Origin: an uncultured Bacteroidales bacterium
GTDB lineage: Bacteria > Bacteroidota > Bacteroidia > Bacteroidales > VadinHA17
Reading direction: 5' to 3'
NCBI GenBank assembly: GCA_963750735.1
Contig: CAVVRY010000018.1
Location: 10,751-74,750, forward strand
DNA: 64,000 bases
Below are positions 13,710 through 41,435 of this stretch, piece by piece. The notes under the pieces are model-generated. The model was not told where the DNA came from and did not search any database. It saw nothing but the letters and a program-made list of their open reading frames with translations. Positions within the stretch are counted from its first letter, which is position 1; each line of letters starts with the position of its first letter. The position numbers and the translations under genes were made by a program.

Positions 13710-15209
13710 ATGAAACTTCCAAAATCATTTTATAGCTGGACAACTGCTATGGGAGCTGCTATTGCAACAATTAGCTTTATATTATTTGTTTTTTTGATAG
13801 TTCTTTCTTTTTTATTTGGTGAAGGCTCAGGCTATACGGGACTTGTTACCTACATTATTTTACCCGTTTTTATAGTTATTGGAGGATTAATGATTCCAAT
13901 AGGAATATTCACAAAACGCAGGAGAGAAAAAAAGCACAAGGTTGTTAGAGAAGTAAAATTTCCAATTTTTGATTTTAATGATCCAAAACAGCGAAGAATA
14001 TTTTTCATTTTTGGAACGGGAACTATAATTTTTTTGATGTTGATAGGGCTGGGGAGCTATGAAGCTTTTCATTATACTGAGTCAACAACTTTTTGTGGTA
14101 CTGTTTGCCATTCTGTAATGGAGCCTGAATATGTAGCGTACCAAAACTCATCACACGCAAAGGTTGGCTGTGTTGACTGCCACATTGGAGGAGGGGCTAG
14201 CTGGACAGTAAAATCTAAATTATCCGGATCATATCAGGTGTATTCTGTTGCATTTAATAAATATGAAAAACCCATTCCAACTCCTGTCCATAATCTTCGT
14301 CCGGCACAGGAGACCTGTGAAGAATGTCACTGGCCTGAGAAGTTTTACTCACGCAAGCTGGACCTTGAGAAACATTACCTGGCGGATGAAAAGAATACTG
14401 AGTGGGATATTAACCTGCAAATGAAAATTGGTCCTGAACACAGCGGTCATGGTCTGAAAGAAGGTATTCACTGGCACATTAATCCGGATATTAAGGTAGA
14501 ATATATATCTAATGATCCTAAGAGGGAGCAGATATCCTGGGTTCGATATACCAATAAAATTACAGGCGAGGAGATTATTTTTCAGGAAGAAGGTGTAAAT
14601 TATACCCAGGAACAATTTGATACACTTGAGATTCGAACCATGGATTGTCTGGATTGCCATAACCGACCATCACACAATTATAATTCTCCTATGACCTTTG
14701 TAAATACGGCCATAAGTGCCGGAGCTATCCCGCAGGAATTACCTGAAATTAAGATGCTGGCTCTTGAAATTATGGGTGGTGACTACCCATCGAAGGATAG
14801 TGCCATGAAGTATATTGAAACAACTGTGAATGAATATTATGAATCCTCCTATAGTGAAATATACCAGGATAGGAAAGAGCTGATAGAAATGGCCATTACC
14901 GGATTACAAACAGAGTTCAATAAGAACATATTCCCCGGGATGAAAGTTAACTGGAGAGCCTATCCAAATCATATTGGCCATTTGGAATTCAACGGTTGCT
15001 TCCGTTGCCACAACGACCAGCATAGTGATGAAAGCGGAAAAACTATTTCTATGGATTGCAACTTGTGCCATACTATTGTGGGCCAGGGAGTACCTGATAC
15101 ACTTCAGGTGGCTAAATACAATGAATCACTTGAGTTTGTGCACCCCAATGACCCTGATCAATACTGGAAAGAAATGCTATGTGTTGACTGCCATAGTGGT
15201 TTGTATTAA
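13710..15209 (+). CDS. NapC/NirT-family inner-membrane heptaheme cytochrome (ImcH-like)
   Basis: Three N-terminal hydrophobic helices; YTESTTFCGTVCH..MEPEY..SSHAKVGCVDCH NapC/NirT signature; 6 CxxCH plus 1 CxxxCH. Size and architecture match Geobacter ImcH. Confidence 0.85.
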   Translation: MKLPKSFYSWTTAMGAAIATISFILFVFLIVLSFLFGEGSGYTGLVTYIILPVFIVIGGLMIPIGIFTKRRREKKHKVVREVKFPIFDFNDPKQRRIFFIFGTGTIIFLMLIGLGSYEAFHYTESTTFCGTVCHSVMEPEYVAYQNSSHAKVGCVDCHIGGGASWTVKSKLSGSYQVYSVAFNKYEKPIPTPVHNLRPAQETCEECHWPEKFYSRKLDLEKHYLADEKNTEWDINLQMKIGPEHSGHGLKEGIHWHINPDIKVEYISNDPKREQISWVRYTNKITGEEIIFQEEGVNYTQEQFDTLEIRTMDCLDCHNRPSHNYNSPMTFVNTAISAGAIPQELPEIKMLALEIMGGDYPSKDSAMKYIETTVNEYYESSYSEIYQDRKELIEMAITGLQTEFNKNIFPGMKVNWRAYPNHIGHLEFNGCFRCHNDQHSDESGKTISMDCNLCHTIVGQGVPDTLQVAKYNESLEFVHPNDPDQYWKEMLCVDCHSGLY

Positions 15210-15461
15210 TCAAGAGCCAGGTTTGGAATGAATTTAATTGCCCAAATGCCCATTTCCCTTTTGTGAGAAGAGCATATCCAGGGGACATTTTATGACAAAA
15301 GATCCATGTTTTTGTGATATATAACATTTTAGTTATCCGATATTCGAATGTTTATATATTTTTACACACTCATTTAATATTTTCCCCGGAAATTAGTTTG
15401 GTGGAACTTTATTGTTAAAAGCCTTATCCTTGAGGCAAAATTTAGTTTTAAAAATTTACAC

Positions 15462-18400
15462 ATGAAAAAAATATTTGATTTTTTATTCTCAATGCAATGG
15501 ATGGCATTTCTCATTCTTATAATGATATTTTCCACTGCCACAGCAACTTTTATTGAAAATGATTTTGGACCAGCAGCTGCAAGAGCAGCAGTCTACAACG
15601 CAAGGTGGTTTGAAGTTTTACTTTTATTTATAATCATAAACCTGATTGGGAATATGATTGTTAATAAAGTATATAAAACAAAAAAATTGAGCATATTCAT
15701 ATTCCATTTTGCTTTTCTTTTCATTTTTTTAGGTTCTGCTATTACCCGGTACATAAGCTATGAAGGATCCATGCATATTCGGGAAAATGATTCATCTGAC
15801 CGTATTATTTCTTCACAATCATATCTTAGTATTGAAGCAGAAAATGAATCCGGGGATGTGCAATACCATGAAAAGACACAATTTATAGCCGGCAAAAAGA
15901 ATAAATTCAATAAAACCCTCAAAATTGGGAATGAATCATTGAAGCTTAAATTGACCAGGTATATCCCAAATGCTGAAAAATCATTGATTCCTGACCCTGT
16001 TGGTGAGCCCGTTGTTTCATTTGTAACATTAGGATCTGAGGGTAGACAGCCACATCTTCTTACACCTGGAGAGACAGAGCATATTGCTGACTTTCATGTG
16101 GGATTTAATAATGCTGCTGCCGATTTTAACATTGTTATTAAGGATGAAGGTTTATATTTTACATCAAAAAACGATGTTTCACTAATGGATATGGGCACAA
16201 ATTCACAGACTCCCCTGGCAGATGGAGAATTGCATCCTTTTGAGACAAAGAGATTATATACTACTAATAATACACAAATAGTACTATCTGACTTTGTAAA
16301 TAAAGGTAAAGTAGATTGGGTTGTTGGTCCAAACGACGGGGCATTTCGACCTGATGTTTTGCTTCTGGAAGCATCATTTAAATCAAAGACTGAAATTCTT
16401 CCCTGTTTTGGAAAGGCTGATAGAATTGGGACTCAACAGAGTTTTGACCTCGATGGAACAACCGTTACCCTGACCTATGGCCCCAGGTGGATTCAGCTTC
16501 CATTTGCTCTCTTCCTTAAAGATTTTCAGCTTGAAAGGTATCCCGGTTCAAACAGTCCGGCTTCCTATGCAAGTGAAGTTACTTTGATTGATAGGGAGAG
16601 TGGTATTGAAAAACCCTATCGGATATTTATGAATAATATATTGAATTATAAGGGCTACAGGTTTTTCCAGTCTTCATATGATACAGATGAGAAAGGAACC
16701 ATTTTATCAGTAAATCACGATGCGATGGGAACTTTTGTAACGTATATAGGTTACTTTTTAATGACCCTGGGTATGGTATTATCCATTTTTAACAAAAATA
16801 GCCGTTTCAGAAGCCTTGCAAGATCAGGGAATAATACCAGAGGAGTTGCGGCAACAGTTTCTACTCTGCTTGTACTTGCATTTACTACGCTTATGCCTTC
16901 CACTTTAAATGCTCAAACAGCATCAGGCACAAATGACGTCATAAGTTCCAGCCAGGCGAACGAATTGTCATCTATTCTGGTTCAGGACCAGGGAGGGCGT
17001 ATTAAGCCCCTTCAATCAATGGCATCTGATGTTATGAGGAAGGTAGTTAAAAGTGAATCGGTTAATGGTATGAACTCAATGCAGGTTGTTATGGGGATGT
17101 ATTTATTCCCGGAATCATGGCAACATGTCCCTATGATCAAGGTAACTAATGGAGAGATTCAGAAAATGCTGGGAGTTCGTGACAAATTTGTATCCTACGT
17201 TGACTTCTTTGATATGGCTGCAATGGGTCAGTACAAGCTATCGAAAATCGTGCAGGAAGCCTATCAGAAAAAGCCAGGTTTACGGACCAAACTTGACCAG
17301 GAAATCCTAAAGGTGGATGAAAGGGTTAATGTTTGTTATATGGTATACTCCGGAAGTATAATAAGGATATTTCCTGTTTTGAATGATCCAAATCATAAAT
17401 GGTATGGCCCGGCAGAAGCTGTAAGTGTAGTTCCAAAATCAGATTCCATTTTTGTAAGTGGAGTTCTCGCTTCTTACAAGAATTCCATCGCTCAGAAAGG
17501 CAATGAAGCAACAGCTTCGGAGATTATAAATGGCATAAAAAAATATCAACAAATTAATGCCGGTGAGTTGTATCCAGCCAAATCGAAAATCTCACTGGAA
17601 ATATTTTACAACCGGATTCATATTTTTGATAAGCTTACAAAATACTATGCGATCATTGGCTTTATCCTGTTGATTCTTCTTCTGATTTCTGTTCTGAATG
17701 AAAAAACAGGAATAAATAAAATTATTCGAATAGCCACCTTATTACTCTTATTGGGTTTTATTTTCCACACATTTGGTTTGGGTATTCGTTGGTATATTTC
17801 CGAACACGCTCCATGGAGTAATGGATATGAATCCATGATTTATATAGCATGGGCTGCTATGCTCTCGGGTTTGATATTCGTTCGAAAATCAACCTTTACT
17901 CTGGTTGCAGCCTCATTGCTTGCTGCTTTAACCCTTATGGTGGCACATATGAGCTGGATGAACCCGGAGATTACGAACCTGGTACCTGTTCTGAAGTCCT
18001 ATTGGTTGACTATACATGTATCAGTTATTACGGCCAGCTATGGATTCCTTGGAACAGGGATGGTCTTAGGACTGTTTAATCTGGTTCTGTATATAATGAA
18101 AACAGACAAGAATCATTTTAAGCTGGAGAAACAGATTAAAACACTTAGTGAAATCAATGAATTATCACTTATTCTTGGTGTCTACTTTTTATCTGTTGGT
18201 ACTTTCTTAGGAGGTGTTTGGGCCAATGAATCCTGGGGACGTTACTGGGGCTGGGACCCAAAGGAGACCTGGGCATTGATAACGGCACTGGTATATATTT
18301 TCATAACCCATATGAGGTTTGTACCGGGGCTAAAAGGAGATTTTGCTTTTAACCTTGCATCAGTTGTAGGATTCTTTTCCGTATTGATGACTTATTTTGG

Positions 18401-18560
18401 AGTGAACTATTACCTGGCTGGTCTTCATTCTTATGCTGCTGGCGATGCTGTACCCATTCCGAAGTTTGTTTATTTTACGGTCGCAAGCCTTGTTTTAATA
18501 ATTCTTTTTGCCTGGTTCAACGAAAAGAATTTTAGAAAAAAGATCCCTGCTGTTAAGTAA
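15462..18560 (+). CDS. ccsA: Fused System II cytochrome c synthetase CcsBA (ResB-CcsA, NrfI-like)
   Basis: N-terminal ATFIEND..YNARWFE and FHFAFLFIFLGSAITRY (ResB part); C-terminal HAPWSNGYE, LKSYWLTIHV and WWD motif WANESWGRYWGWDPKETW, GLHSYA. Confidence 0.93.
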   Translation: MKKIFDFLFSMQWMAFLILIMIFSTATATFIENDFGPAAARAAVYNARWFEVLLLFIIINLIGNMIVNKVYKTKKLSIFIFHFAFLFIFLGSAITRYISYEGSMHIRENDSSDRIISSQSYLSIEAENESGDVQYHEKTQFIAGKKNKFNKTLKIGNESLKLKLTRYIPNAEKSLIPDPVGEPVVSFVTLGSEGRQPHLLTPGETEHIADFHVGFNNAAADFNIVIKDEGLYFTSKNDVSLMDMGTNSQTPLADGELHPFETKRLYTTNNTQIVLSDFVNKGKVDWVVGPNDGAFRPDVLLLEASFKSKTEILPCFGKADRIGTQQSFDLDGTTVTLTYGPRWIQLPFALFLKDFQLERYPGSNSPASYASEVTLIDRESGIEKPYRIFMNNILNYKGYRFFQSSYDTDEKGTILSVNHDAMGTFVTYIGYFLMTLGMVLSIFNKNSRFRSLARSGNNTRGVAATVSTLLVLAFTTLMPSTLNAQTASGTNDVISSSQANELSSILVQDQGGRIKPLQSMASDVMRKVVKSESVNGMNSMQVVMGMYLFPESWQHVPMIKVTNGEIQKMLGVRDKFVSYVDFFDMAAMGQYKLSKIVQEAYQKKPGLRTKLDQEILKVDERVNVCYMVYSGSIIRIFPVLNDPNHKWYGPAEAVSVVPKSDSIFVSGVLASYKNSIAQKGNEATASEIINGIKKYQQINAGELYPAKSKISLEIFYNRIHIFDKLTKYYAIIGFILLILLLISVLNEKTGINKIIRIATLLLLLGFIFHTFGLGIRWYISEHAPWSNGYESMIYIAWAAMLSGLIFVRKSTFTLVAASLLAALTLMVAHMSWMNPEITNLVPVLKSYWLTIHVSVITASYGFLGTGMVLGLFNLVLYIMKTDKNHFKLEKQIKTLSEINELSLILGVYFLSVGTFLGGVWANESWGRYWGWDPKETWALITALVYIFITHMRFVPGLKGDFAFNLASVVGFFSVLMTYFGVNYYLAGLHSYAAGDAVPIPKFVYFTVASLVLIILFAWFNEKNFRKKIPAVK

Positions 18561-18580
18561 ACTGTAAATGAATCGAAAAT

Positions 18581-18635: not shown

Positions 18636-20411
18636 TTACCAACAACTTTGTCTACCTCCACAATGAGCATCCGTACCCAGATAAGAATAACTGAAGCTTC
18701 CACCTGTGGGATTGTTTACAATTGTGCCACCATCCACAAAGCTTCTGGGATCAAAATAAGTATTCCCATCCACATGCCATGATGTCCCATATGTTCCCTG
18801 GTAAACAGGAGAACCGCTATCTCCATAATCTCCATCATTCGCATTATGACACCAGAAACAGTTAACCTGAGTCCAACCGCTAGCTATTAAATCCTGATCA
18901 TTATCTTTATGAGGCGTTCTTCTATGACCACCATAGTTTGGAGGTTGAGGGTCTGCTGGGCCAGGAGTTGTAATTGTATAATCACCAGTCATATTGCCAA
19001 CACCGGAATGACAGGCATCGCAGGAAGAAATAGTTCCAACAGTTGAATTCCATGCCGGCGTTAAAGTATATATGGGTGAATCTGGAGGTCTTGCACCCCA
19101 TATTAAAACGCCGTCAGTTCCCCTGTAAGCGCTTTTACCATCACTATGACAATAGATATTGCCACAGGTTTTGTCGCCATTGTAAGACGGTGTATTGCTG
19201 TCTGCTCCATTCCTGTATACCAGGCCGGAGGGATCAAAAGCGACATTGGCTGCACCGCCACTTGGGTGTGAGCCTTCAAGATCACCACCTGATCCATACT
19301 GGTAATGGCAGGTGTTGCATTCGAATTGATATTTGGATGTATGAGCGTAATGACCCTCTGTAGTACCCCAGCCTGGAAAATTTGCAATATGGCAATCTTC
19401 ACATCCGGTTGGAGCAAAGCTGTCTTCATGAGGATGACAGCCAATACAATTGTCCCCTGCATGATGATTACCTCCGGTACCATCATTATTATGATAGTTT
19501 GTACTTGTATGACAAACCTCACATATTCCATCATAATTGGAATCTCCATCTGCACCTGAGTTGGAGCCTGTTTGTTCTGTAAATAGTACAGTTTTATCTC
19601 CACTGTTTGGAGTTGAAACAATATTTCTAATTAAATAAATGTTGGCCTTATTAGTATTGTGTGTTTGATGACAGGCTGAGCATCCCATGGACTCGTGCGC
19701 TGTATAGGTATGACAACTGGCACATAGAGCATCATTATTTGTTTGACGGAGAAGATAGCCGTCTGTGGTAGCTGAATAATGAACCTGGTGGCAACTTGAG
19801 CATTCAATATTGCCATCGGGTATTATCACAGATCCTGTAGGCGGTTCCTTATACGCAATATTTCCTGTAGGATAGGCCAGACCAATAGGGTGACTTCCTT
19901 TATTATTGATGTTGTCGTCTGCATATCGGCCAACATCCCGGGCTGAATGACAATCCTTACACATGGCATCACCTTCATTGGAAATCCGAAGATAGTTTGG
20001 AATTGTATTTCCAACATGCTGATCATGGCAGGTAGAACAGATTATATTTCCATCAGGCAGGCGTAGCAGCATTTCCGGATTAGTAGGTGTGTTTGTCTCG
20101 TAGCTTGCATTGATTGCCAATTCACCCCAGGCATGAGAAGTCCCTCTCGTTCCGGGTATTGCCTTGTCTGAGTTATCCAGGGGCAGACCGCTTGCTGTTC
20201 CGGTTGGATTGTGGCAACTGATACACAAATTGGCATTTCCGTCAACTGCAGTTAAGGCTCCTCCGGGAGCATTGTGGAATATATGACATGCACTACAGGT
20301 ATAAACAATATGTCCCTGTGCAAGACCTAAATTGTTAATAGCTGAGAATAAAGCAACTAGAAATATCCCTTTTATCAAGTATTGATTTAATTTATAGGAG
20401 ATATCTTTCAT
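18636..20411 (-). CDS. Secreted multiheme cytochrome c, about 14 hemes, with Geobacter-type CxxxxCH...CxxCH C-terminal domain
   Basis: Signal peptide GLA/Q; 13 CxxCH plus CGNIYCH followed by PAW..CDACH; OmcE-like pairs (CxxCHxxH..LR..LCxxCH) in the N-terminal half. Confidence 0.9.
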   Translation of the reverse strand: MKDISYKLNQYLIKGIFLVALFSAINNLGLAQGHIVYTCSACHIFHNAPGGALTAVDGNANLCISCHNPTGTASGLPLDNSDKAIPGTRGTSHAWGELAINASYETNTPTNPEMLLRLPDGNIICSTCHDQHVGNTIPNYLRISNEGDAMCKDCHSARDVGRYADDNINNKGSHPIGLAYPTGNIAYKEPPTGSVIIPDGNIECSSCHQVHYSATTDGYLLRQTNNDALCASCHTYTAHESMGCSACHQTHNTNKANIYLIRNIVSTPNSGDKTVLFTEQTGSNSGADGDSNYDGICEVCHTSTNYHNNDGTGGNHHAGDNCIGCHPHEDSFAPTGCEDCHIANFPGWGTTEGHYAHTSKYQFECNTCHYQYGSGGDLEGSHPSGGAANVAFDPSGLVYRNGADSNTPSYNGDKTCGNIYCHSDGKSAYRGTDGVLIWGARPPDSPIYTLTPAWNSTVGTISSCDACHSGVGNMTGDYTITTPGPADPQPPNYGGHRRTPHKDNDQDLIASGWTQVNCFWCHNANDGDYGDSGSPVYQGTYGTSWHVDGNTYFDPRSFVDGGTIVNNPTGGSFSYSYLGTDAHCGGRQSCW

Positions 20412-20432
20412 TTTAAAATCCAGTATAGTTGT

Positions 20433-22625
20433 TTATTTACTTATAATTAATTTTCCTGAACTGACCAGGTCTTCTGAAGCAACTCTTACCATATATATAC
20501 CTTTTGGAAGACCGCCCAAGTCAATTATTTCCTTGGCCTCGTTGGGATTAAGTTGCACCGAGTAAATTATCTGTCCCTGCAAATTATAAATCTCTATCTT
20601 CATATTGTTATGAACTGGGTTAATAAGCTCTATAGTCAATAGGCCACTTGTTGGGTTCGGATATAAGCTTATGATATCATCCAGCACAATAGATTCAACA
20701 GGCAACTGTAAAACAGTTATAGTATCCGAAAAGGCTACATCACCACAGTTTTCATTGTATGAGGTTAGAGTTACAATATAATCACCTGGACTTGAATATG
20801 TGTGAACCGGATTGGCTTCTGTGCTTGTTTTTGTATCGCCAAAATCCCATAGGTATGAATCAGAATTAAGAGAAGTATTTATGAAACTAATTTCCATTGC
20901 ATTATGATTGAAGTCGAATCCTGGTACGGGAGATTCCCTTTTAACAATATCAGGATAACCAACAGACTTTGTATTACTGCAGTTTTGATCACTTACTAAT
21001 TTAACCTCATATGTACCCTGATCGGAAACAGAAAGTGTATATGGGCTTTGATGAATATTTTCAACTGTCTTAGGGTTTGAGTCATCATTTGTATATGTAA
21101 TAGACCAGGGTGAAGAGCCTGTAAGATCAATGATCAGATCTGTGCTCTGATCCTCACAGATCAAAACTGTAGCATTTCCAATTGTGATAGTTGATGTAGG
21201 TAAAGAATTCATCGTAACCTCGGCTGTTCCGGTGTAAATGCTTCCGGAGCAACCACCACCTTCCAGAGCAACCACTTCGTAAAGTCCTGCTTCTGAAACC
21301 TTAAGCAGGTAGGGATTATTTGTTGTAGTTTCCGTTTTTGGATCAGATCCATTCTTAGTATAGGTAAAGGTCCAGGGAGGTAGTCCTGTAAAACTTATTG
21401 CTATATCAGTTGATTCTCCGTCGCATATTGCTACCTCCCCATTTGAAATATTGGAAGTAGGAGGATCATTATTTACTTCAATTTTTGTTTTTCCTGTGAA
21501 ACAGGTGCCTGCAGAGTTGGCATCATTGAGAGCTGATACTTCATAGGTCCCAGGTTCAGAAACCGTTAAAACATATCGATTCTCTATTATGTTATTAACC
21601 TCTACCGGGTTTAACCCGTCCACCGTATAGATGAATGTCCAGGGCGCTGTTCCGGTGAATTCAATTTCAATATTCGTGCTTTCTCCCTGGCAAATGATAG
21701 TATTCAGGCTATTCATTTTTGCTGTTGGTAAAGCACTGTTAATGCCATACACATCAAATGCTGAATTATTCAATGAACTAATTAGTAGCTGATTATGGGA
21801 ATTTGAAACAATATCGAGAGGTACATTCAATTGGCCTTCTGTACTTCCAAACTCACCAAACCGGGTAATATACGATCCATTCTGATCGAATATGCTTATT
21901 TGCGCCTGAAATGGATCAGTAACAAATATATTTCCACAATTGCCTGTGGTAATACCCTGGATTCTGTAAAACTCACCTTCTCCATTTCCATGTTTTCCAA
22001 AGCTGCCAATTAATGTTCCATCAAGATTGAATATCCATACCTTAACTTCAGGATTAAATCCGGTGCCCAATCCCCCATGTTCTGCAACCAGTAAAGTATT
22101 ATTATTCGGGTTGTATGCTATTCCGGTTGGGAAAACTAAAATTCCTTCACCAATTACACGTATTACATTTGCTGAAAGATCAAGAACAATTACTTTTTTT
22201 AACTCACTATCTGCCACGTACAAAAGGCCGTCAGCATCAAATGCCATTGAATTTGGGAATAGTGTTCCTGAATAAAATTCGGTTAAGTTCCCATCTGGCT
22301 CAAATCTATAAATGTGGCCCGTTTCATCAGATCCGATGAACAGTTGATTGTTTCTGTTAACAGCAAGAGAAAGAGGTGAGATTTCCGGATATTGGGTAGC
22401 TAGTAAATTCCCGGAAGGATCAAATTTCAATATACGTTTTTCATTTACATCTGTCAGATAAATATTATCGAAATGGTCAACAGCCATTCTTACAGGAGCA
22501 TTTATTCCATTTTCAATACGGGATATATGAACAATATCCTCAGGAGCGACCTGAGAATATATGATTTTAATGGATGCAAGCACTATGATCCAAAGAAATA
22601 GATTTTTCTTTAAAAAACTTTTCAA
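20433..22625 (-). CDS. NHL-repeat beta-propeller, 3 Ig-like repeats, PKD domain and T9SS type A C-terminal domain
   Basis: NHL blades (FPNSMAFDADGLLYVAD, LVFPTGIAY, GQLNVPLDI); three repeats of ICxGESTxIxIxFTGxxPWTFxYT; PKD SYLWDFGD..NPVHTYSSPGDYIVTL; CTD LYPNPTSG..IEIYNLQGQ..LPKGIYMVRV..KLIISK. Confidence 0.88.
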   Translation of the reverse strand: MKSFLKKNLFLWIIVLASIKIIYSQVAPEDIVHISRIENGINAPVRMAVDHFDNIYLTDVNEKRILKFDPSGNLLATQYPEISPLSLAVNRNNQLFIGSDETGHIYRFEPDGNLTEFYSGTLFPNSMAFDADGLLYVADSELKKVIVLDLSANVIRVIGEGILVFPTGIAYNPNNNTLLVAEHGGLGTGFNPEVKVWIFNLDGTLIGSFGKHGNGEGEFYRIQGITTGNCGNIFVTDPFQAQISIFDQNGSYITRFGEFGSTEGQLNVPLDIVSNSHNQLLISSLNNSAFDVYGINSALPTAKMNSLNTIICQGESTNIEIEFTGTAPWTFIYTVDGLNPVEVNNIIENRYVLTVSEPGTYEVSALNDANSAGTCFTGKTKIEVNNDPPTSNISNGEVAICDGESTDIAISFTGLPPWTFTYTKNGSDPKTETTTNNPYLLKVSEAGLYEVVALEGGGCSGSIYTGTAEVTMNSLPTSTITIGNATVLICEDQSTDLIIDLTGSSPWSITYTNDDSNPKTVENIHQSPYTLSVSDQGTYEVKLVSDQNCSNTKSVGYPDIVKRESPVPGFDFNHNAMEISFINTSLNSDSYLWDFGDTKTSTEANPVHTYSSPGDYIVTLTSYNENCGDVAFSDTITVLQLPVESIVLDDIISLYPNPTSGLLTIELINPVHNNMKIEIYNLQGQIIYSVQLNPNEAKEIIDLGGLPKGIYMVRVASEDLVSSGKLIISK

Positions 22626-22782
22626 TGAATGTCTGATTTAGTTTTGGTCTCTATACAAATTTACACATTTTCTTGATTTATACTTAGAGAGCAAGAAATC
22701 ATATACATAAGACTTAATTAGTATAAATTAAAATAATGGTTTATGTTGACTCTGAATTTATATTTTCTCCTACCAGTTTCCC

Positions 22783-24465: not shown

Positions 24466-24467
24466 TC

Positions 24468-25792: not shown

Positions 25793-26323
25793 ATGTTTAC
25801 TAAAAAATCTCTATTAATTCTAAGTCTGGCTTTATTCATGGGCAGTACATTATTTGCTCAGGACTATAAGTACATTGGTGCTGCAAAATGCAAAATGTGC
25901 CATAATAAAGAGGAAAAAGGCGAGCAATATAATAAATGGCTGGCTGCTCCTCATGCCAATGCAATGAAATCCTTAAGCAATGAAGAATCGATGGCATATG
26001 CAAAAGAAAATGGCATTGCTGATCCAACCAAAGATCCTGGATGCCTTTCCTGCCATGCTACTGCCGGAGCTATAGATAAGAGCCAAAATGGTGGTGTAAA
26101 AGTGACTGAGGGAGTATCATGTGAATCATGTCATGGCCCTGGAAGTGTTTATAAGAACATGTCCATAATGAAAAGTCGTGAGAAAAGCATGGACGCAGGT
26201 TTAATACTTCCTACTAAAGAAGTATGTGTTACCTGTCACAATGAGAAAAATCCTTTCCATAAGCCATTTAACTTCGATGAGGCGGTTAAGAAAATTGCTC
26301 ATCCAGACCCAACAGCAGAATAA
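25793..26323 (+). CDS. Periplasmic tetraheme cytochrome c, c554-like family
   Basis: Signal LFA/Q; YIGAAKCKMCH, CLSCH, GVSCESCHGPGS, CVTCH. Confidence 0.88.
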   Translation: MFTKKSLLILSLALFMGSTLFAQDYKYIGAAKCKMCHNKEEKGEQYNKWLAAPHANAMKSLSNEESMAYAKENGIADPTKDPGCLSCHATAGAIDKSQNGGVKVTEGVSCESCHGPGSVYKNMSIMKSREKSMDAGLILPTKEVCVTCHNEKNPFHKPFNFDEAVKKIAHPDPTAE

Positions 26324-27933: not shown

Positions 27934-27963
27934 CCTGACTCGTCCTGAAAAAGGTTTACAGGT

Positions 27964-28829: not shown

Positions 28830-28846
28830 TGTAGGATATACTTCTT

Positions 28847-29452: not shown

Positions 29453-29462
29453 ATTAGTTTTT

Positions 29463-31136: not shown

Positions 31137-31147
31137 AAATAGTTAGT

Positions 31148-33118
31148 TTAAAATTTCCTTGTAACTCGTAAGAAAAATCCGTTTAATATAAATTTGCTCG
31201 TTACGTAATTACGGCTATAAAAGTCAATTCCTGCATTCAAATACAATTGACGGAAGACAGTTGAAAATTCAAGCCTGCCTGTCCACATACTGAGGTCTGT
31301 TTGGAATGCCTTATGTCTTAAGTAACCTACTTCCAATTCGATTCGCGTTTGGGCCTTAAAGACATAAGCCGCCCTACCAGAAATATTCCCAAATCTTTGT
31401 TGATGGTTATCCTCAATATATTTGTAATCTCTCAGAGAGGCATTTAGTGAGAGAATTAACTTATTATTGAAATCACCCTGCAGGTTTAGATAATAGCGAA
31501 TCATACGGTAGGGTATTATATTGCTATTGTAGTTGTCTAATTCTACACCTCCCCGAGCAAAGTTTTTTTCCAGGCGTATCCCAACTATATTTTGAGAAAA
31601 GTAGTTAAGCGTAAGAAAATCGGTTTGTTGGATATTAACATAGTTTTGAAATCGGCCCATGTAATATATCTCAAGTAAGCGATCAAAGAGAAGAAAGCCC
31701 AAATAAACATTATGATTATTAAGATCATACTTGTAACTTCCTGGTTGAATGACAGTATAGTCAACGAGTACTGAACCCCCATTGGGAATCAGGCCTCCTA
31801 ATAATCTCTGGACTTCAATATAATTATTTCTTTCAATAAGTATATAATCCAGATTTAGCTGATAAATTATAGTTCCGGAGATGTCTTTTAATACTACAGA
31901 ATTGATATCTGCATTTGGTTTCCCAAGCAATTCAATCACTCCATCTGTTAATGTATGCCCCTCATTTAGGACTTGCAATGTAGCAGTTTCGCCATCCATC
32001 TCAAGGTGATGCCGAAAATAATGGTAAGATATGTTTAAACGCCCAAAAGGAATTTTTTTAGTATAGTCAAAACCAAATCCTCCTTTGAAATTTGATTCAT
32101 AGTAAACGGTTTGATTTGTGTTGTAATATTCCAGGAAGATGTTGCTTCTAAGGCTTAGAAATAATTCTTGATGCAGGTCGACACCCACCCTGTTTTGGGC
32201 AATATCCTGGAAACTTTCTTTTAACTTGTAAAAATTGTAATGAGCTGCAAGCTGGAAATTTGAAGGAAGATTAAACAATATACGTTCGTTTATATCAAGC
32301 CGTTCAAAATCAAATGTACCAACCTGAGAATAATAAGAAATTCGGGAATTGAAATTATAGTTTTTCGCAGAATCGAGAAATACCTGGTTGTTCAGGTTAA
32401 CACGGTTTATAACATTTCGGTTGGTGTCAAGTGCTGAATGAGTATAAGTAAAATCATCATGACCATAAATTAGTTCATTTTTATCACGCATCCCAAATGA
32501 TCTGTCAATCCGACCTTCGAATGTACTTCTATCGTTGGTGAAAACTCTTCCTGTTTCGGTTTCCCTCTGATTCCACTTTAAATCATTATACCTAAGAGTG
32601 AGAGGTACATGTTTATTCTTTAATAGAAGGATGCCTCCCCATTGTTGGCTTTTTGAACGAACATTTGTAAGGTTTTCCCGATTGAAATAACTTTGGTGAT
32701 AATTATAAAATGGAGTTATTGTTACAGTTTTACCGTTGAATAATGTAGATCTAATTCCTATTTTACCCAATGTACGTACTTCGGATCGATTCGGTATTGT
32801 CAGATATTTTTCATTCCTAGTTTCAGGATTGAATTCAAAATCTAAATCCAGAAGCACCAAGTCAGGAAGCCAGAGAAAAGAACTGGAATGTAATTTAATT
32901 CCTGCAATTCCATATATACTTTGCTGTTTTTCTTCAGTAATTCCAATCGTGCTATTTTGCTGGCGATAGAAACCTTCTAGGCTAACTTCACCGGTAAATG
33001 CCAGTTGATGCCAGAAGCCCAGTGAAGAAAGGGAACCCTGAGGGAGGACTTCCAGGCATAATGGGAGAATTAAAAGAATCAATATGTAGCGAAAGTGTTT
33101 CACGCAATTGTTAATCAA
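31148..33118 (-). CDS. Large outer-membrane beta-barrel protein (putative porin of a porin-cytochrome conduit, ExtB-like)
   Basis: Signal peptide; many alternating aromatic/hydrophobic strands rich in Y, N, R; C-terminal FLRVTRKF; lies between two multiheme genes. Confidence 0.72.
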   Translation of the reverse strand: MINNCVKHFRYILILLILPLCLEVLPQGSLSSLGFWHQLAFTGEVSLEGFYRQQNSTIGITEEKQQSIYGIAGIKLHSSSFLWLPDLVLLDLDFEFNPETRNEKYLTIPNRSEVRTLGKIGIRSTLFNGKTVTITPFYNYHQSYFNRENLTNVRSKSQQWGGILLLKNKHVPLTLRYNDLKWNQRETETGRVFTNDRSTFEGRIDRSFGMRDKNELIYGHDDFTYTHSALDTNRNVINRVNLNNQVFLDSAKNYNFNSRISYYSQVGTFDFERLDINERILFNLPSNFQLAAHYNFYKLKESFQDIAQNRVGVDLHQELFLSLRSNIFLEYYNTNQTVYYESNFKGGFGFDYTKKIPFGRLNISYHYFRHHLEMDGETATLQVLNEGHTLTDGVIELLGKPNADINSVVLKDISGTIIYQLNLDYILIERNNYIEVQRLLGGLIPNGGSVLVDYTVIQPGSYKYDLNNHNVYLGFLLFDRLLEIYYMGRFQNYVNIQQTDFLTLNYFSQNIVGIRLEKNFARGGVELDNYNSNIIPYRMIRYYLNLQGDFNNKLILSLNASLRDYKYIEDNHQQRFGNISGRAAYVFKAQTRIELEVGYLRHKAFQTDLSMWTGRLEFSTVFRQLYLNAGIDFYSRNYVTSKFILNGFFLRVTRKF

Positions 33119-33164
33119 TTATTACTCAATAGTAATTCGTGGTCATTCAAATGTCAATTTTGCC

Positions 33165-33405
33165 GTTTAATCGTTTAACTGTTTTTTGATAATTGATTAT
33201 CTGTTTATTGGCTCATTGTTTACTGATAACTGATTATTTGTTTCTTTTACCCTGATTACTGTTTATTGATAATTGTTTATTGGTAACTGTTTACTGATAA
33301 CTGATAATTGATTATTTGTTTTCTTTATTAGTTTGGTTTTTGGTTCCTGTTTTTATCTGATTACTGATTACTGATTATTGATTATTGTTTAGTGATATCT
33401 GTTTA
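33165..33405. repeat. Degenerate 7-nt tandem repeat tract (TGATTAC/TGATAAC/TGTTTAC/TGATTAT)
   Basis: For example CTGATTACTGATTACTGATTATTGATTATTGTTTAGTGATATCTGTTTA and ACTGATAACTGATAATTGATTAT; intergenic. Confidence 0.75.
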
Positions 33406-33439
33406 GGACTTTCGATTTACGTTTCACACCTTATGTCAT

Positions 33440-33997
33440 TTAATTAAACATTAACCTATCCTTTCCTCCATGGGGATTGTGGCATTCGATGCAATTCGTA
33501 TCTTCTATTCCTTCATGAATTTTTGTATTAAAACCTTCCCCCGGAACATGACAATGTAAACAGAGTTCCTGCCCACTGCGTTTCAGTAAATTTTCTTTTG
33601 CATAATGGGGCTGATGACAGGCCGTGCAATAGCCTCCGGCAACCGGGCCATGAACAGTTTTATAGCGCTCTTCGAAATTTTCATGGCACTGGTAACAGAG
33701 TTTGGGCTGAGGGAGAATGTATCGGCCCATCGTATTTTGGTCATGGCAGCTTGAACAATCTTTTTCCAGGTATGGAATGTGATAAATAGTCTTTGGTGCG
33801 TTTGGAATTTCAGTTTCCTGGACTATTATATCAGGACTGTTTAAAGAATCAATACCGATGGTCTGCTCCAGTAGCTCATCACCAGGGACTCCGTCAAAAA
33901 AGAAATTCATGGCCTTTTTCCCTGCTTCAGGGGAACAACCACCTAATAGGATAAGAATGAAAATGATAATTGAGCTTACTGACCAAGCATTATTCAT
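33440..33997 (-). CDS. Pentaheme cytochrome c lipoprotein (ExtC-like)
   Basis: Lipobox LGGC; FFFDGVP; CSSCH, CYQCH, CTACH, CLHCH, CIECH; directly upstream of the barrel gene. Confidence 0.88.
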   Translation of the reverse strand: MNNAWSVSSIIIFILILLGGCSPEAGKKAMNFFFDGVPGDELLEQTIGIDSLNSPDIIVQETEIPNAPKTIYHIPYLEKDCSSCHDQNTMGRYILPQPKLCYQCHENFEERYKTVHGPVAGGYCTACHQPHYAKENLLKRSGQELCLHCHVPGEGFNTKIHEGIEDTNCIECHNPHGGKDRLMFN

Positions 33998-35060
33998 TTA
34001 TAGATGTTTTTTCTTCAACAAATCCGTATACCCCTATTTTATTGGGTCCAAATTGATTTGTCACATAGATTAAGAATTTCAGGTTAAAATCCTTATAAAC
34101 ATAGGGTTTGAAATAATCAAGGTTATCATAGCTGATGGCAACTCCGGCTGGAAGACTCATATTTCCATGTCCTCCAAAAAACATCAATAATGCACCACTT
34201 TTATTAAAGATTTGAACATTTTCAAAAGCTGCATCTACTGCATACAGGTTTTCATTTTTGTCAAGAGCAATGCCTTTTGGGCGTGTAAATTGGCCAAATC
34301 CCTTTCCATAATTCCCAGTTATACCCCTAAAACTTCCATCTGGTGAAAAAGATTTAATATTAAATCCACCAAAATCTGTAACATAAATATTTTCATTTGA
34401 AGAAGAAATATTCACAGGCTGATTTAGGTATCCCTTCGACTCTGGATTTAAGTTTGGGAAAGAATCAATCAGGTTATAATCCAGTAAATCGTATACAAAT
34501 ATTTTATGTCCACTAACATTGGCCACATATATTTTTTCATCCTTCACCCATACACCTGTTGGTTTAAAATTCCCAGTTGCCCCCAGGGCAGTGACATACT
34601 TTAACATATGGTCGAATACTACAACCTGTTTTCGTTCCCCATCAGCAACAAAGAGATAATGAAATTCATCAACAAAACAATTTAGTGGAAGTTTTAGTTG
34701 GCCTTTGCCAGTAGGTATAAAGTATTCGAAGGTTCCTTTTTTCAAATTAATAATTTCCAATCCGCCAATTCCCGGGTCGCAGATATATATACTATTTTTT
34801 GTTACCTGAATTCCATATGGCCTGTTTATGGGTCTCGGTTCTTCTTCACCAAGGAAAAACTTTTTAAATCCGGATTGGGGTCTGGCAATGTTTTCTGAGC
34901 TGTTAATATAAGTTAAAAATTGTATTCTTGCAGAATCCGGAGGGGAGGGAAATAGTATAAGTTCTTCAGCAGTTGGAGATTTGATTATTTTCTTTGTGCA
35001 GGCATCAAAAGTAAATGCCATGATCAAAAGAATGAATAATGTAGAAAGGCTTCGATTCAT
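33990..35060 (-). CDS. NHL-repeat beta-propeller lipoprotein
   Basis: Lipobox FDAC; FPSPPDSARIQFL; NHL blades GQFTRPKGIALDKNENLYAVDAAFENVQIF; overlaps the pentaheme gene by 8 nt. Confidence 0.87.
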   Translation of the reverse strand: MNRSLSTLFILLIMAFTFDACTKKIIKSPTAEELILFPSPPDSARIQFLTYINSSENIARPQSGFKKFFLGEEEPRPINRPYGIQVTKNSIYICDPGIGGLEIINLKKGTFEYFIPTGKGQLKLPLNCFVDEFHYLFVADGERKQVVVFDHMLKYVTALGATGNFKPTGVWVKDEKIYVANVSGHKIFVYDLLDYNLIDSFPNLNPESKGYLNQPVNISSSNENIYVTDFGGFNIKSFSPDGSFRGITGNYGKGFGQFTRPKGIALDKNENLYAVDAAFENVQIFNKSGALLMFFGGHGNMSLPAGVAISYDNLDYFKPYVYKDFNLKFLIYVTNQFGPNKIGVYGFVEEKTSINE

Positions 35061-35280
35061 TTAGTAAAAAGTTGTTGTAGGCCCTATAAAATGGCAGGGT
35101 GAAAGCCTACATTTAGATACACTGTTTTTCTACATACTTTATTGTGCGAAATCGTATGCCGGGAAATAACAGAAATATAGTCTTAATGTAAGCAGAACCA
35201 TTTCCGAAAATATACATTTTTTCTTTTAGAAATTTTTTAAATAAGAGATCGACAAAATCTTTATCTTTTTTTTGAAATGG

Positions 35281-35304
35281 AAAAGGGCAGCCGAAACCAC
35301 CCTT
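35281..35304 (-). terminator. Terminator hairpin after the omcE-like gene
   Basis: Minus strand AAGGGTGGT-TTCG-GCTGCCCTT-TT, a UUCG-loop hairpin with G-U pairs. Confidence 0.65.
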
Positions 35305-35330
35305 AAATATTTATTATGCAAAACTGACCT

Positions 35331-35927
35331 TTATTTAAGGTGACAGGTCAGACAAAGTGCACTACCTCCATTATCCAATCGAAGAAAATTGCCAAATTGA
35401 TTATCGTGCACATCATGACATGAAGCACACTCCATCCTTTCTGAAAACAACATATCTGCATCTATGGTTCCACCAAGACCTGAATTCACAGCAGAAGGAT
35501 CTGCCAGTCCATCATCAATTGTAGAGAGAGCAGTATTGTAGTCAAAACTTATAGGATGGTCATTATCTAAACTTGTACCAACTAAAGCGCTCCCAGTCAT
35601 AAAATTTGTTCCAGTATTACCTCCAAAACTTTCAAGAGCAACAGTACCATCATGACAACTGAGGCACAATAATGAATTTGAGCCTGGTTGTGCAACGGTG
35701 GCATCTAATGTTGGCGAAGTATACAAAGTAAATGTTGCGGTAGTAACGTCATGATTCCATAGCGGAGCATTGGCCACAGCAGTACCATTGTGGGGAGTAT
35801 GGCAGACTATACAAATTTCACCTCCTGACCAGGTGTCACCACTAAAGTCATGACCAGAACCTGTAATTTGACCAAATGCTATTACTGTCAAGCACATCAA
35901 AAAAGAAGCAATTAGTATTTTTTTCAT
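35331..35927 (-). CDS. omcE: OmcE-like tetraheme cytochrome c (candidate cytochrome nanowire subunit)
   Basis: Signal AFG/Q; ordered motifs SGHDFS, EICIVCHTPHN, PLWNH, TFTLYTS, SLLCLSCHDG, VGTSLDNDHPISF, MECASCHDVHDN, FLRLDNGGSALCLTCH match Geobacter OmcE as I recall it (not aligned computationally). Confidence 0.85.
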   Translation of the reverse strand: MKKILIASFLMCLTVIAFGQITGSGHDFSGDTWSGGEICIVCHTPHNGTAVANAPLWNHDVTTATFTLYTSPTLDATVAQPGSNSLLCLSCHDGTVALESFGGNTGTNFMTGSALVGTSLDNDHPISFDYNTALSTIDDGLADPSAVNSGLGGTIDADMLFSERMECASCHDVHDNQFGNFLRLDNGGSALCLTCHLK

Positions 35928-36089: not shown

Positions 36090-36103
36090 TTGATATATAT
36101 CAA
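36090..36103. promoter_or_regulatory. Perfect FNR box upstream of the omcE-like operon
   Basis: TTGAT-ATAT-ATCAA, about 160 nt upstream of the ATG at 35927. Confidence 0.75.
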
Positions 36104-39486: not shown

Positions 39487-39500
39487 TTGATATTTATCAT
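39487..39500. promoter_or_regulatory. FNR-type box upstream of the cbcL-like gene
   Basis: TTGAT-ATTT-ATCAT (1 mismatch), about 95 nt upstream of the ATG at 39391. Confidence 0.6.
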
Positions 39501-39763: not shown

Positions 39764-40432
39764 TTAATGTCCCTCATGATAGCCGGTTATCATACTTTTA
39801 AAAAGAGTTGAAGATTTATCTCCCAGTGTACATGTATAAATGTGGATAAGCATAAACAGGGAAAGTATAAATCCTGTGGTAATATGAATCAGGTCATTAA
39901 TAAGCAACCCACTTATATTAAAAATCCTGTTCACTATCAATTCCGGGAAAAACATAGCTATTCCTGATAAGATTAACAAGGGCATGCCTACATACATAGC
40001 CAGGATATAACTTACTTTTTGCAGGGGATTGAATTTGCTGTTTTCAGTAACCGGAAAAGGATGTGGTTCTCCCTTAAACATACCATATGCATAATATCTT
40101 CCCTGTATGTAGAGATTTTTAAGAAGGCCTTTTTCTCCAAACCTATAATGTTTACTGTTACCGGTTGTAATGTTACCAATTATAAATACCAAGAAATTAG
40201 CGCTTAAAATCAGTGCTGTTATGTTGTGCCATTTAACTGCTGCACCAAAGTTCATAAGGAAAAATTCATTTTTCGCATTTGCTGCAGCTTCTGAACCAGC
40301 AGGCAATAACCACCCGGCGGCCCCGGCATATTGCATACTTAAGCCTGTAGCGATAAGCACAATAAATAGGAGAGCATTGAGAATATGCCAGGACCGAATC
40401 CATTTTGGATATAAATATAGTTTATGACTCAT
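39764..40432 (-). CDS. Membrane cytochrome b (Ni-hydrogenase/FdnI-type; CbcB-like)
   Basis: IRSWHILNA..ATGLSM, WHNI, KFNPLQKVSY, LIHI..FMLIHIY; four TM helices; overlaps the upstream heptaheme gene. Confidence 0.88.
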   Translation of the reverse strand: MSHKLYLYPKWIRSWHILNALLFIVLIATGLSMQYAGAAGWLLPAGSEAAANAKNEFFLMNFGAAVKWHNITALILSANFLVFIIGNITTGNSKHYRFGEKGLLKNLYIQGRYYAYGMFKGEPHPFPVTENSKFNPLQKVSYILAMYVGMPLLILSGIAMFFPELIVNRIFNISGLLINDLIHITTGFILSLFMLIHIYTCTLGDKSSTLFKSMITGYHEGH

Positions 40433-41435
40433 GTTTTACTTTTTTTGAATTTAATATCCTGAAAAACACGTGAATGCCAATCCCAAATAATGTTCCCGCA
40501 AGGAATATAAAACTTAAAATATTAAGATATTTATTTCGGTTGGCACCAATCACATAAGATTCATTTATTATTATACCATTAAAAAATCCTGATTGTCTCT
40601 GTTCCCGGGATTTGAATTTATAAAGAGTATTCATTAACCTGGTATCTTGAGAATGGCATTCAATACATCGTTGTACAGCCTCTGACTTTGGAAGCAGGAG
40701 ATGGGCTACTAATATGGTATCGTTTATTTGGGTATGACACTCAATACACCTGACCTTGGTAAAATGCAGTGCCTGGTTTGGAAGCCATTCATGTGTTTGA
40801 ACAATATCAAGCTCCCCATGATCAGTCAGCAACTGGTATCGGTCGAAGTTCGTATGACAGGCAAGACACATATCGTTTGCAAAAGTTACTATTTCAGAGA
40901 AGTCATCACTTCTTCGAACAGTTGGAACATAACCATGTGGATCGTGGCATTTCCAGCAGGAAAATCCATCCCCTTCATGACCATAATGCACACTTGCCTG
41001 ATACTCAACTTCGATTTCCTCAAAATGGTATTGGGCAAAAGCTTCATCACCACCATGACAATCTATACAAGTGGGATGTTCCTCAAAAATAAGTTCAGCC
41101 GGATGCGGAAAGGTGTTAAAATCATATGAGTGGCAATCAGTACAGCTAAAGTTTTTGTGAACCGACATGTAATAAACCTCCCTGGATAATATCTTATCCA
41201 TAGGCATCAAACGCCGCATTATTTTGCCGGTTTCAGGATTCTCATATTCATATCTTGCACCACTATGGCATGTAAAACACACTTCATTATCAGCATAAGA
41301 GGCAAACTGTTCTGAGAGGCTGTCCTGAAAATAGCCTGGTACAGTTGGAATGTCAGGTAAAATATTCCCAAAGGAGGGCAGCATGGTAATAAGAAATATT
41401 ATTACCAGACATTTTTTTTGAAATATATCTTTCAT
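40422..41435 (-). CDS. Heptaheme cytochrome c with C-terminal membrane anchor (CbcA-like)
   Basis: Seven CxxCH (CFTCH, CTDCH, CIDCH, CWKCH, CLACH, CIECH, CIECH); HEWLPNQALH; YVIGANRN followed by a TM helix ending GIHVFFR. Confidence 0.88.
   Translation of the reverse strand: MKDIFQKKCLVIIFLITMLPSFGNILPDIPTVPGYFQDSLSEQFASYADNEVCFTCHSGARYEYENPETGKIMRRLMPMDKILSREVYYMSVHKNFSCTDCHSYDFNTFPHPAELIFEEHPTCIDCHGGDEAFAQYHFEEIEVEYQASVHYGHEGDGFSCWKCHDPHGYVPTVRRSDDFSEIVTFANDMCLACHTNFDRYQLLTDHGELDIVQTHEWLPNQALHFTKVRCIECHTQINDTILVAHLLLPKSEAVQRCIECHSQDTRLMNTLYKFKSREQRQSGFFNGIIINESYVIGANRNKYLNILSFIFLAGTLFGIGIHVFFRILNSKKVKHES

Follow-up and report, generated by a model that had tools for sequence, protein, structure and literature searches.

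ImcH-, CbcL- and CbcBA-family genes in a cytochrome island of a sediment Bacteroidales genome: probable pieces of a split conserved cluster

Almost all work on the quinol oxidases ImcH, CbcL and CbcBA has been done in Geobacter, where their genes are scattered; ImcH is needed only above about −0.1 V. ImcH homologues are defined by three transmembrane (TM) motifs, an atypical CX3CH haem motif beside the membrane domain and six CX2CH motifs, and the Geobacter group, of 495–519 residues, shares 31.5–49% identity with the proteins of other bacteria (PMC6295460). CbcL of Geobacter sulfurreducens has 619 residues, nine haems and six TM helices (PMC6295460 Table S2; PMC9129911), and belongs to a CbcL/MtrH/MtoC family that ranges from 3 to 23 motifs and from 416 to 1034 residues, with identities as low as 28.6% (PMC6295460). 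CbcA is a seven-haem cytochrome whose C-terminal anchor appears to supply a b-haem histidine, and CbcB is a four-TM dihaem b subunit whose homologues are annotated as thiosulfate reductase-like (Joshi et al., bioRxiv 10.1101/2021.04.15.440034). All three families have already been reported in Bacteroidota or Ignavibacteria. ImcH homologues from Bacteroidota and Ignavibacteriae are in print (PMC6295460 Table S3), with the same distribution given in bioRxiv 10.1101/2023.05.03.539133 and by Levar et al. 2014; 19-haem CbcL-family members are listed from Ignavibacteria, Bacteroidetes and Caldithrix abyssi (PMC6295460 Table S2); and cbcBA clusters are reported from Calditrichaeota and Bacteroidetes (bioRxiv 10.1101/2021.04.15.440034). 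Here we describe a 64,000-nucleotide stretch of DNA from an uncultured Bacteroidales bacterium, referred to as the window, whose ImcH-, CbcL- and CbcBA-like genes are further members of these known families.

The window corresponds to positions 10751–74750 of contig C18 in an assembly of 4.68 Mb, 20 contigs and about 37% GC that is 96.9% complete. Ten open reading frames (ORFs) between 11057 and 41435 carry 4–20 CXXCH motifs each, and 10 of the 17 ORFs with at least three such motifs genome-wide lie on the window's contig. An initial annotation of this DNA had placed all three quinol oxidase types in one locus, and the architectures of all three are present where it had put them. At the thresholds used, the ImcH-, CbcL-, CbcA- and CbcB-like genes are each single-copy in the assembly. 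Likeness to the Geobacter genes was judged from published numbers and descriptions, the families being matched by signature (haem spacing, haem-1 pocket residues and transmembrane histidines). Across the proteins of the three units, the Pfam and NCBIfam matches are of the NapC/NirT, cytochrome c3/c7 and Ni_hydr_CYTB types. We consider it likely that the window represents the main cytochrome island in a Bacteroidales-type genome of anoxic-sediment origin, that it holds one member each of the ImcH, CbcL/MtrH/MtoC and CbcBA families, and that these are pieces of a conserved cluster that has been split.

The ImcH-family cytochrome P0001 (13710..15209, plus strand) has 499 residues, compared with 507 in G. 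sulfurreducens ImcH (GSU3259). Its three N-terminal hydrophobic segments, located by hydropathy at residues 9–43, 39–69 and 95–117, compare with TM segments 13–35, 45–67 and 100–122 of GSU3259 (PMC6295460 Table S3), and its NapC/NirT N-terminal region was matched by Pfam. The seven haems of the initial annotation resolve into one atypical CX3CH at C129 and six CXXCH motifs at 154, 203, 313, 430, 450 and 491. The resulting haem spacing of 25, 49, 110, 117, 20 and 41 equals that of the Draconibacterium sediminis row of PMC6295460 Table S3 except for the first interval, which is one lower in the table, and is co-linear with that of GSU3259 (24/25, 49, 106, 117, 20, 38). The intervals between haems 3 and 4 and between haems 6 and 7 (110 and 41) are of the Bacteroidota/Ignavibacteria type, whereas Geobacter has 106 and 38. 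The D. sediminis protein of Table S3 was recognised in locus L057 by its length and haem positions; this protein, LH29_RS21090, and P0001 are each the single match in the other's genome, at 51% identity.

In GSU3259, H137 and Q179 are the haem-1 ligands, and E127, K173 and Y188 are conserved residues of the haem-1 pocket (bioRxiv 10.1101/2023.05.03.539133). P0001 has E124, K170, Q176 and Y185 at the same offsets (−10, +36, +42 and +51) from its haem-1 histidine H134, a comparison that presupposes no insertion or deletion between the two proteins. Among 28 aligned family sequences E124, C129, C133, H134 and K170 were invariant and Q176 was at least 90% conserved. By the published signatures there is thus a strong case for P0001 as a member of the ImcH family. 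The setting of the gene differs from that of GSU3259 in that imcH of the window and its relatives is clustered with cbcL- and cbcBA-like genes.

Assignment of P0001 to NrfH, NapC or TorC was considered and rejected: it scored 49 bits against a cut-off of 134 for NrfH, 20 against 311 for NapC/NirT and 25 against 455–478 for TorC. No nrfA, napA or torA was found among its neighbours in the Pfam domain scan, which covered the 30 ORFs between 10105 and 46268. The NCBIfam model NF041028 had no match in 14 control genomes. The PDB contained no ImcH, CbcL or CbcBA chain, the best matches being NrfH (E 7e-5) and a 278-residue cytochrome, and a tblastn search of plasmids gave a single NapC/NirT match, in Selenomonas. 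The family is very large, with 7992 of 8000 scored proteins at E 0.001 or better and 716 clusters (50% identity) at E 1e-30 or better. No clear example of the Geobacter-type haem spacing was present among the stored representatives; the nearest, P0333, has an arginine in place of the haem-1 glutamine. Three family members (P0250, P0254 and P0287) of 876–940 residues carry some 20 haem motifs beyond the ImcH core, and the family exceeds by far the 6–10 motifs given in the 2018 survey (Zhong & Shi).

The second module, P0002 (36608..39391, minus strand, 927 residues), is the multihaem and cytochrome b fusion that had been described at this position. It has a signal peptide, 19 CXXCH motifs between residues 35 and 584, and six hydrophobic segments between 616 and 926 that form a six-TM dihaem b-type domain. 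The spacing of the 19 haems is almost exactly that of the Ignavibacteria, Bacteroidetes and Caldithrix rows of PMC6295460 Table S2. Seven histidines in or beside TM1, 2, 3 and 5 (His631, 669, 711, 725, 826, 841 and 846) were invariant in 14 sequences. CbcL is described with one histidine in each of TM1–3 and two in TM5 (bioRxiv 10.1101/2021.04.15.440034), and three TM-region histidines are given as conserved in the CbcL/MtrH/MtoC family (Zhong & Shi, PMC6295460). P0002 shares with CbcL (GSU0274) the joining of a periplasmic multihaem c domain and a six-TM HydC/FdnI-like b domain in one polypeptide, and the histidines conserved in TM1–3 and TM5. By these published signatures a good case can be made for P0002 as a member of the CbcL/MtrH/MtoC family. 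Matches to Ni_hydr_CYTB (Pfam) and to FdnI-like models (NCBIfam) were all under the cut-offs, and an assignment as FdnI was rejected (43 bits against 116).

Unlike GSU0274, with its nine haems and 619 residues, P0002 has a c domain built of a tandemly duplicated eight-haem module and a partial copy of three haems. Residues 35–263 and 279–508 are 40% identical over 238 residues (E 8e-54), and the three-haem partial copy follows the duplicated module (protein residues 35–610). The 19-haem form arose by tandem duplication of an eight-haem module plus a three-haem partial copy. The best 120 database relatives of P0002 have 878–954 residues and are 62–91% identical to it, mostly in Bacteroidales or Bacteroidota records, so that 19 haems are the rule in this group. 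The window's CbcL/MtrH/MtoC member has the form that prevails in Bacteroidota, Ignavibacteria and Calditrichota.

The third module is a pair of overlapping genes on the minus strand, as the initial annotation had it: a seven-haem, C-terminally anchored cytochrome, P0004 (40422..41435, 337 residues), followed by a four-TM b-type cytochrome, P0003 (39764..40432, 222 residues). The gene order is cbcA to cbcB, with an overlap of 11 nucleotides. P0004 has seven CXXCH motifs and a TM segment at residues 303–328 that contains His322; all seven motifs, seven further histidines and His322 in the anchor were kept in 28 of 28 sequences. P0003 has four TM segments and an 85-bit Pfam match to Ni_hydr_CYTB, and its His16, 69, 183 and 197 were kept in all 29 sequences and were invariant in a 25-sequence alignment. 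Its best NCBIfam match was to thiosulfate-reductase cytochrome b. The pair thus resembles CbcBA (GSU0593/0594) in having a seven-haem, histidine-anchored cytochrome followed by a four-TM 'thiosulfate-reductase-like' dihaem b subunit in the order cbcA-cbcB, and by the published signatures P0003 and P0004 make a good CbcBA-like pair. It differs from GSU0593/0594 in its neighbours, which are Crp/Fnr regulators and not a sigma-54/BccR system, and in its position directly upstream of a cbcL-like gene, which is seen in the window, in genome G040 and in the relatives L003–L058. Assignments of P0003 as PhsC, hydrogenase cytochrome b or FdnI were rejected (168 against 204, 53 against 121.5 and 48 against 116 bits, respectively), and no gene for a catalytic partner of these proteins was found nearby among the 30 scanned ORFs.

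The b-type domains of P0003 and P0002 have little in common (20% identity over 96 residues, E 3e-4), so that two distinct b-type modules are present in the window, as they are in Geobacter (bioRxiv 10.1101/2021.04.15.440034). The initial annotation had named grouping with NrfH/NapC, or with hydrogenase or formate dehydrogenase cytochromes b, as the outcome that would count against it. By score and neighbourhood the proteins do not group in this way: the curated cut-offs were not reached, and no catalytic subunits are encoded among the 30 scanned ORFs.

CbcB- and ImcH-type modules were also encountered in single polypeptides. In P0269, a 734-residue representative from the ImcH search, residues 3–201 are 43% identical to P0003 (E 6e-54) and are followed by a complete ImcH module. 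Such CbcB::ImcH fusions, of 686–761 residues, made up 75 of the best 120 database clusters found with P0269 (P0269 and P0411–P0486); those with names are in records of Ignavibacteria, Kapaibacteria, Chloroherpetonaceae and Bacteroidota. The fusions have an extra histidine, 96% conserved, at the end of TM1, where P0003 has a glutamine; this histidine may replace the one supplied by the CbcA anchor. The fusions appear to link the CbcB-type and ImcH-type modules functionally.

The arrangement of the three modules was compared across species-representative genomes scanned with an alignment of P0002 relatives. Of 636 stretches that matched, 624 encode a relative; 61 loci from the best 80 of these 624 were then searched with the proteins of the island. 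They belong to Bacteroidota-like groups or other non-Geobacter phyla throughout, including Bacteroidales, Prolixibacteraceae, 'Chlorobiota' (Ignavibacteria-type), Calditrichia, Aminicenantes, Latescibacterota and others. In 18 of the 61 loci cbcA, cbcB, cbcL and imcH are consecutive on one strand, and in three more all three units lie within 10 kb in another order. At least one unit was missing within the locus despite adequate flanks in 25 loci; the flanks were too short to judge in 14, and in one the cbcL match was only partial.

The order of the compact form, over about 13.5 kb, is crp/fnr, cyt6 (a six-haem cytochrome), a monohaem cytochrome gene, DUF5777, cbcA (seven haems), cbcB, cbcL (19 haems) and imcH. 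This full order is found in D. sediminis JN14CK-3, in Maribellus sp. YY47 and in one Chlorobiota metagenome-assembled genome. In D. sediminis and Maribellus, imcH is followed by cyt4 (a four-haem cytochrome) and then ResB/CcsA, and in the Chlorobiota genome by other ORFs. A homologous Crp/Fnr regulator heads the compact clusters in 24–25 of the 61 loci. No description of a contiguous cbcA-cbcB-cbcL-imcH cluster was found in full-text searches of the literature, although Figs 5 and 7 of PMC6295460, which concern neighbourhoods and of which the legends were accessible, may already depict part of it.

The window contains the same genes in two blocks. Block 1 (10105–18560) holds a regulator, cyt6, a remnant of the monohaem gene, DUF5777, imcH and resB/ccsA, and block 2 (36608–43340) holds cbcA-cbcB-cbcL and two more regulators. 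The cbcA-cbcB-cbcL segment is inverted and lies 21 kb from imcH, and cyt4 stands apart at 25793. Between the blocks are two outer-membrane-type cytochrome clusters and mobile-DNA remnants (27655–29200). The loci of D. sediminis JN14CK-3 (L057), Maribellus sp. YY47 (L048) and Mangrovibacterium lignilyticum BM_7 (L058) have the same families at 40–60% identity; theirs are contiguous, on one strand and about 13.5 kb long, whereas the window's is split in two blocks with insertions. Together with the 18 compact loci and the three of other order, this arrangement indicates that the co-occurrence of the three genes, as judged from gene order and sequence, is that of a rearranged, loosened copy of a widespread cluster and is not peculiar to the window's organism.

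A set of 41 related genomes, including the window's own, was also searched; the set is a sample in which several assemblies are incomplete. ImcH-like genes were found in 14, CbcL-like in 6 and CbcA-like in 17, each CbcA with an adjacent CbcB. In G040 the order cbcA-cbcB-cbcL is as in the window. In the genus-mates G001–G003, which are 80–96% complete, cbcA and cbcB were not found, and the nearest CbcA is 56% identical, compared with genus relatives at 81–97% for ImcH and CbcL. The cbcBA pair of the window's genome may have a separate history. Outside these groups, locus L005, from a metagenome-assembled genome labelled Pseudomonadota (67% GC), has a cbcL-like gene (41% identity) immediately preceded by an imcH-like gene (39%), and the imcH-cbcL neighbourhood is therefore not confined to one phylum.

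Potential regulatory sites were sought as TTGAT-N4-ATCAA boxes. With at most one mismatch, four were intergenic compared with 0.94 expected, a number reached in 4 of 500 shuffles. Over the whole window there was no enrichment at this threshold (10 against 8.1 expected; 34 of 100 shuffles reached 10), and at two mismatches or fewer the count was at background (13 against 11.5 expected). The four are a box with one mismatch, TTGATATTTGTCAA (10888..10901), between the regulator gene and cyt6; a perfect box, TTGATATATATCAA (36090..36103), upstream of the four-haem gene of a further cytochrome cluster; a box with one mismatch at 39487..39500, 96–109 nucleotides upstream of the cbcL-like start; and a perfect box at 43347..43360, 7–20 nucleotides upstream of the regulator gene that starts at 43340. 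Upstream of cbcA there are two weak sites, a CRP-like palindrome with one mismatch (41797..41812) and an FNR-like box with two (41839..41852). The suggestion that the cbcL-like and cbcAB-like units have separate Crp/Fnr boxes is thus borne out only in part: cbcL has a box with a single mismatch, and cbcA has only the two-mismatch box and the palindrome. A scan for sigma-70 promoters (65 against 54 expected) and terminators (12 against 10) gave background numbers in both cases, such a scan being uninformative for Bacteroidota.

In the compact clusters a box precedes cyt6 in 10 of 15 cases, cbcA in none of 18, and cbcL and imcH in one of 18 each. Boxes therefore sit mainly at the cluster head, which speaks against the proposed differential control of the cbcL- and cbcAB-like units and argues that the usual state looks like one FNR-controlled, co-regulated unit. 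Separate control in the window would then be a secondary consequence of the split of the cluster. The three regulators of the window are encoded at 10105..10800 (minus strand; Pfam cNMP_binding and HTH_Crp_2; Cys10, Cys13 and Cys111), 41900..42598 (plus strand; Cys11, Cys14, Cys112 and Cys138) and 42621..43340 (minus strand; identified by Pfam). Two of the three have an N-terminal CxxC and a central cysteine, an arrangement that we take to resemble the cluster-binding cysteines of FNR.

From the families we infer how the system would work. Each of the three modules would oxidise menaquinol at the inner membrane: ImcH at a NapC/NirT-type site beside haem 1, and CbcL and CbcBA through their dihaem b domains, with the CbcA anchor supplying a histidine in CbcBA. 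Electrons would pass along the periplasmic haem chains to small secreted cytochromes, then to outer-membrane units of cytochromes and barrels, and on to extracellular acceptors; quinol oxidation, the direction of electron flow and the nature of the acceptor are all read from family membership. Expression is probably turned on under anoxia by the FNR-type regulators.

Several observations weigh against taking the window as a split cluster of these three families with this function. The three genes are patchy in distribution, all three occurring in only 3 of the 41 genomes (G000, G009 and G040). None of the named cultured carriers is known to be a metal reducer. No sigma-54/BccR-type regulator was found near cbcBA among the ORFs between 10105 and 46268, Crp/Fnr regulators standing there instead. 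P0002 has 19 haems and not nine as in Geobacter CbcL, a number that lies inside the published range of its family. The monohaem gene of the cluster looks frameshifted in the window, and the DUF5777 barrel, at 300 residues, seems small for a porin that sheathes a cytochrome. Orthology with the G. sulfurreducens proteins would follow from published numbers and descriptions and not from alignment. Finally, the CbcL/MtrH/MtoC family works both ways, MtoC being found in Fe(II) oxidisers (PMC6295460).

This last point bears on the possibility that the modules run in reverse, reducing quinone with electrons from outside (Fe(II), cathodes or partner cells). Homologues of CbcL/MtrH/MtoC are indeed found both in Fe(II) oxidisers and in reducers, but the only sources of ImcH homologues reported so far, according to the same survey (PMC6295460), are Fe(III) reducers. 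Regulation of the FNR type and a habitat in anoxic sediment are more in keeping with an electron sink, and no oxidase or carbon-fixation genes were found by Pfam in the island (ORFs 10105–46268), so that we regard reverse flow as very unlikely. Scarcely more can be said, and if anything slightly less, for the modules as quinol dehydrogenases of periplasmic reductases for soluble acceptors, NrfH/NapC-like with nitrite or nitrate, or PhsC-like with thiosulfate or polysulfide. The best curated matches are indeed to NrfH for P0001 (49 bits) and to thiosulfate-reductase cytochrome b for P0003 (168 bits), and cyt6 has a marginal match to Cytochrom_C552 (24.8 bits against a cut-off of 24.1). The P0001 and P0003 matches are nevertheless under their curated cut-offs (134 and 204 bits); genes for NrfA, NapA, PhsA/B, hydrogenase or formate dehydrogenase were not found among the 30 scanned ORFs; and the genes nearby encode large multihaem cytochromes, barrels and a protein sorted by the type IX secretion system.

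On the reading of the initial annotation, the three modules would each be tuned to acceptors of a different potential (high for ImcH, low for CbcL and lowest for CbcBA, as in G. sulfurreducens), and the organism would switch between them, aided by separate Crp/Fnr control. All three architectures are present in single copy, the two b-type modules are barely alike, as in Geobacter, an FNR-like box precedes the cbcL-like gene itself, and two regulators lie beside cbcA; that the three modules are kept together in 21 of the 61 loci suggests that they are not simply redundant. Windows of potential are, however, not readable from sequence, so that switching would be pure analogy, and it would be drawn across the low identities published for ImcH and the CbcL family. 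Single substitutions at V205 or F525 abolish the cut-off of G. sulfurreducens CbcL (bioRxiv 10.1101/2022.08.31.506072), and imcH and cbcL are constitutive in that organism (bioRxiv 10.1101/2021.04.15.440034). The compact clusters, moreover, lie on one strand with short spacers and have their boxes at the head, and the sites upstream of the window's cbcA are weak. We therefore regard tuning and switching as possible but doubtful. A proposal of low probability, which we put forward tentatively, is that in Bacteroidota, Ignavibacteria and Calditrichota the three oxidases would form one co-transcribed, FNR-controlled unit (cbcA-cbcB-cbcL-imcH) and would not be alternatives, their modules being interchangeable or physically coupled, and that the dispersed genes of Geobacter and the split genes of the window would both derive from it. 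The natural CbcB::ImcH fusions support this proposal. A complex prediction for CbcB with residues 1–240 of ImcH scored 0.16 against a mark of 0.32 and speaks neither for it nor against it.

The remaining genes of the island are mostly those of cytochromes and their partners. In block 1, cyt6 (11057..12145, plus strand) encodes a six-haem lipoprotein-type cytochrome with weak likeness to domain II/IV of MtrC/MtrF. Its lipoprotein-type signal (Cys23) leads into a collagen-like Gly-X-X stretch, perhaps a spacer that keeps the haem domain off the membrane. The monohaem lipoprotein cytochrome gene (12296..12611, plus strand) runs over two frames, with an apparent frameshift between 12412 and 12426. 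This gene is intact in L057 (125 residues) and was matched in 26 loci, while the window has short ORFs only, and the two frames were matched by tblastn with the L057 gene; it may be a pseudogene or reflect an assembly error. The DUF5777 membrane beta-barrel protein (12618..13520, plus strand; Pfam 266 bits) is conserved in 31 of the 61 loci. Downstream of imcH lies a ResB/CcsA fusion (15462..18560, plus strand), identified by Pfam as a system II cytochrome c maturation protein, which in compact clusters comes after imcH and cyt4. The 79-residue, two-TM ORF 7 nucleotides upstream of cbcA (41443..41682, minus strand) has no counterpart in the 61 loci.

Between the blocks, a cytochrome cluster at 18636..25547, all on the minus strand, comprises genes for a 13-haem cytochrome (18636..20411), an NHL/Ig-like protein sorted by the type IX secretion system (20433..22625), an 11-haem MtrC-like cytochrome (22783..24465) and an NHL propeller (24468..25547). 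The sorted protein, of 730 residues with NHL, Ig-like and PKD domains and a C-terminal type IX sorting domain, is encoded between the 13- and 11-haem genes and may be a surface partner of these cytochromes. The cluster is followed by cyt4 (25793..26323, plus strand), a four-haem, secreted, c554-like cytochrome present in 37 of the 61 loci, which comes after imcH in compact clusters. The mobile-DNA remnants (27655..29200) consist of a DUF559 endonuclease-like ORF, an rve_3 integrase-core fragment and HTH_21, all by Pfam; they stand in the stretch that separates the two outer-membrane cytochrome clusters and may be a trace of the rearrangement by which the conserved cluster was split. The second outer-membrane cluster, a porin-cytochrome-like one at 29463..35927, again on the minus strand, has genes for a 20-haem cytochrome (29463..31136), a putative beta-barrel of 656 residues ending in Phe (31148..33118), which was recognised from sequence character only, a five-haem lipoprotein (33440..33997), an NHL protein (33990..35060) and a four-haem cytochrome (35331..35927). 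No tRNA genes were found in the window, and no compositional break was seen in it that would mark a boundary of the island.

Public sequence runs gave some indication of habitat and expression. In 18 DNA runs, represented by sediment, salt-marsh and marine-sediment metagenome contigs, 26–47% of sampled words of 36500–41900 were found. Two of them, X1 and X3, covered 30 of 30 bins, with 7 of 22 and 15 of 91 pieces, respectively, at least 99% alike. Two sediment RNA libraries also contained matching pieces, their contigs covering 12 (X19) and 9 (X20) of the 30 bins of the same interval. Those of X19 include near-identical pieces of the cbcL-like gene, for example one of 223 nucleotides with two differences, and X20 has a piece of 159 nucleotides without differences across the cbcA/cbcB junction. 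As carry-over of DNA is possible, the RNA pieces are a hint of transcription only.

For the window alone, the result is a well-founded annotation without surprise, a solid but fairly ordinary find. In the window and, more so, in its relatives, the three modules travel together in sediment Bacteroidota, and the compact cluster also encodes a cytochrome maturation system of its own, together with an FNR-type regulator, a barrel and a small secreted cytochrome. Three cultured organisms in which the cluster could be tested are Draconibacterium sediminis, Maribellus sp. YY47 and Mangrovibacterium lignilyticum. Its occurrence raises the questions of whether potential-dependent use is general to these families, and whether the abundant fermentative Bacteroidota of marine and salt-marsh sediments dispose of electrons extracellularly.

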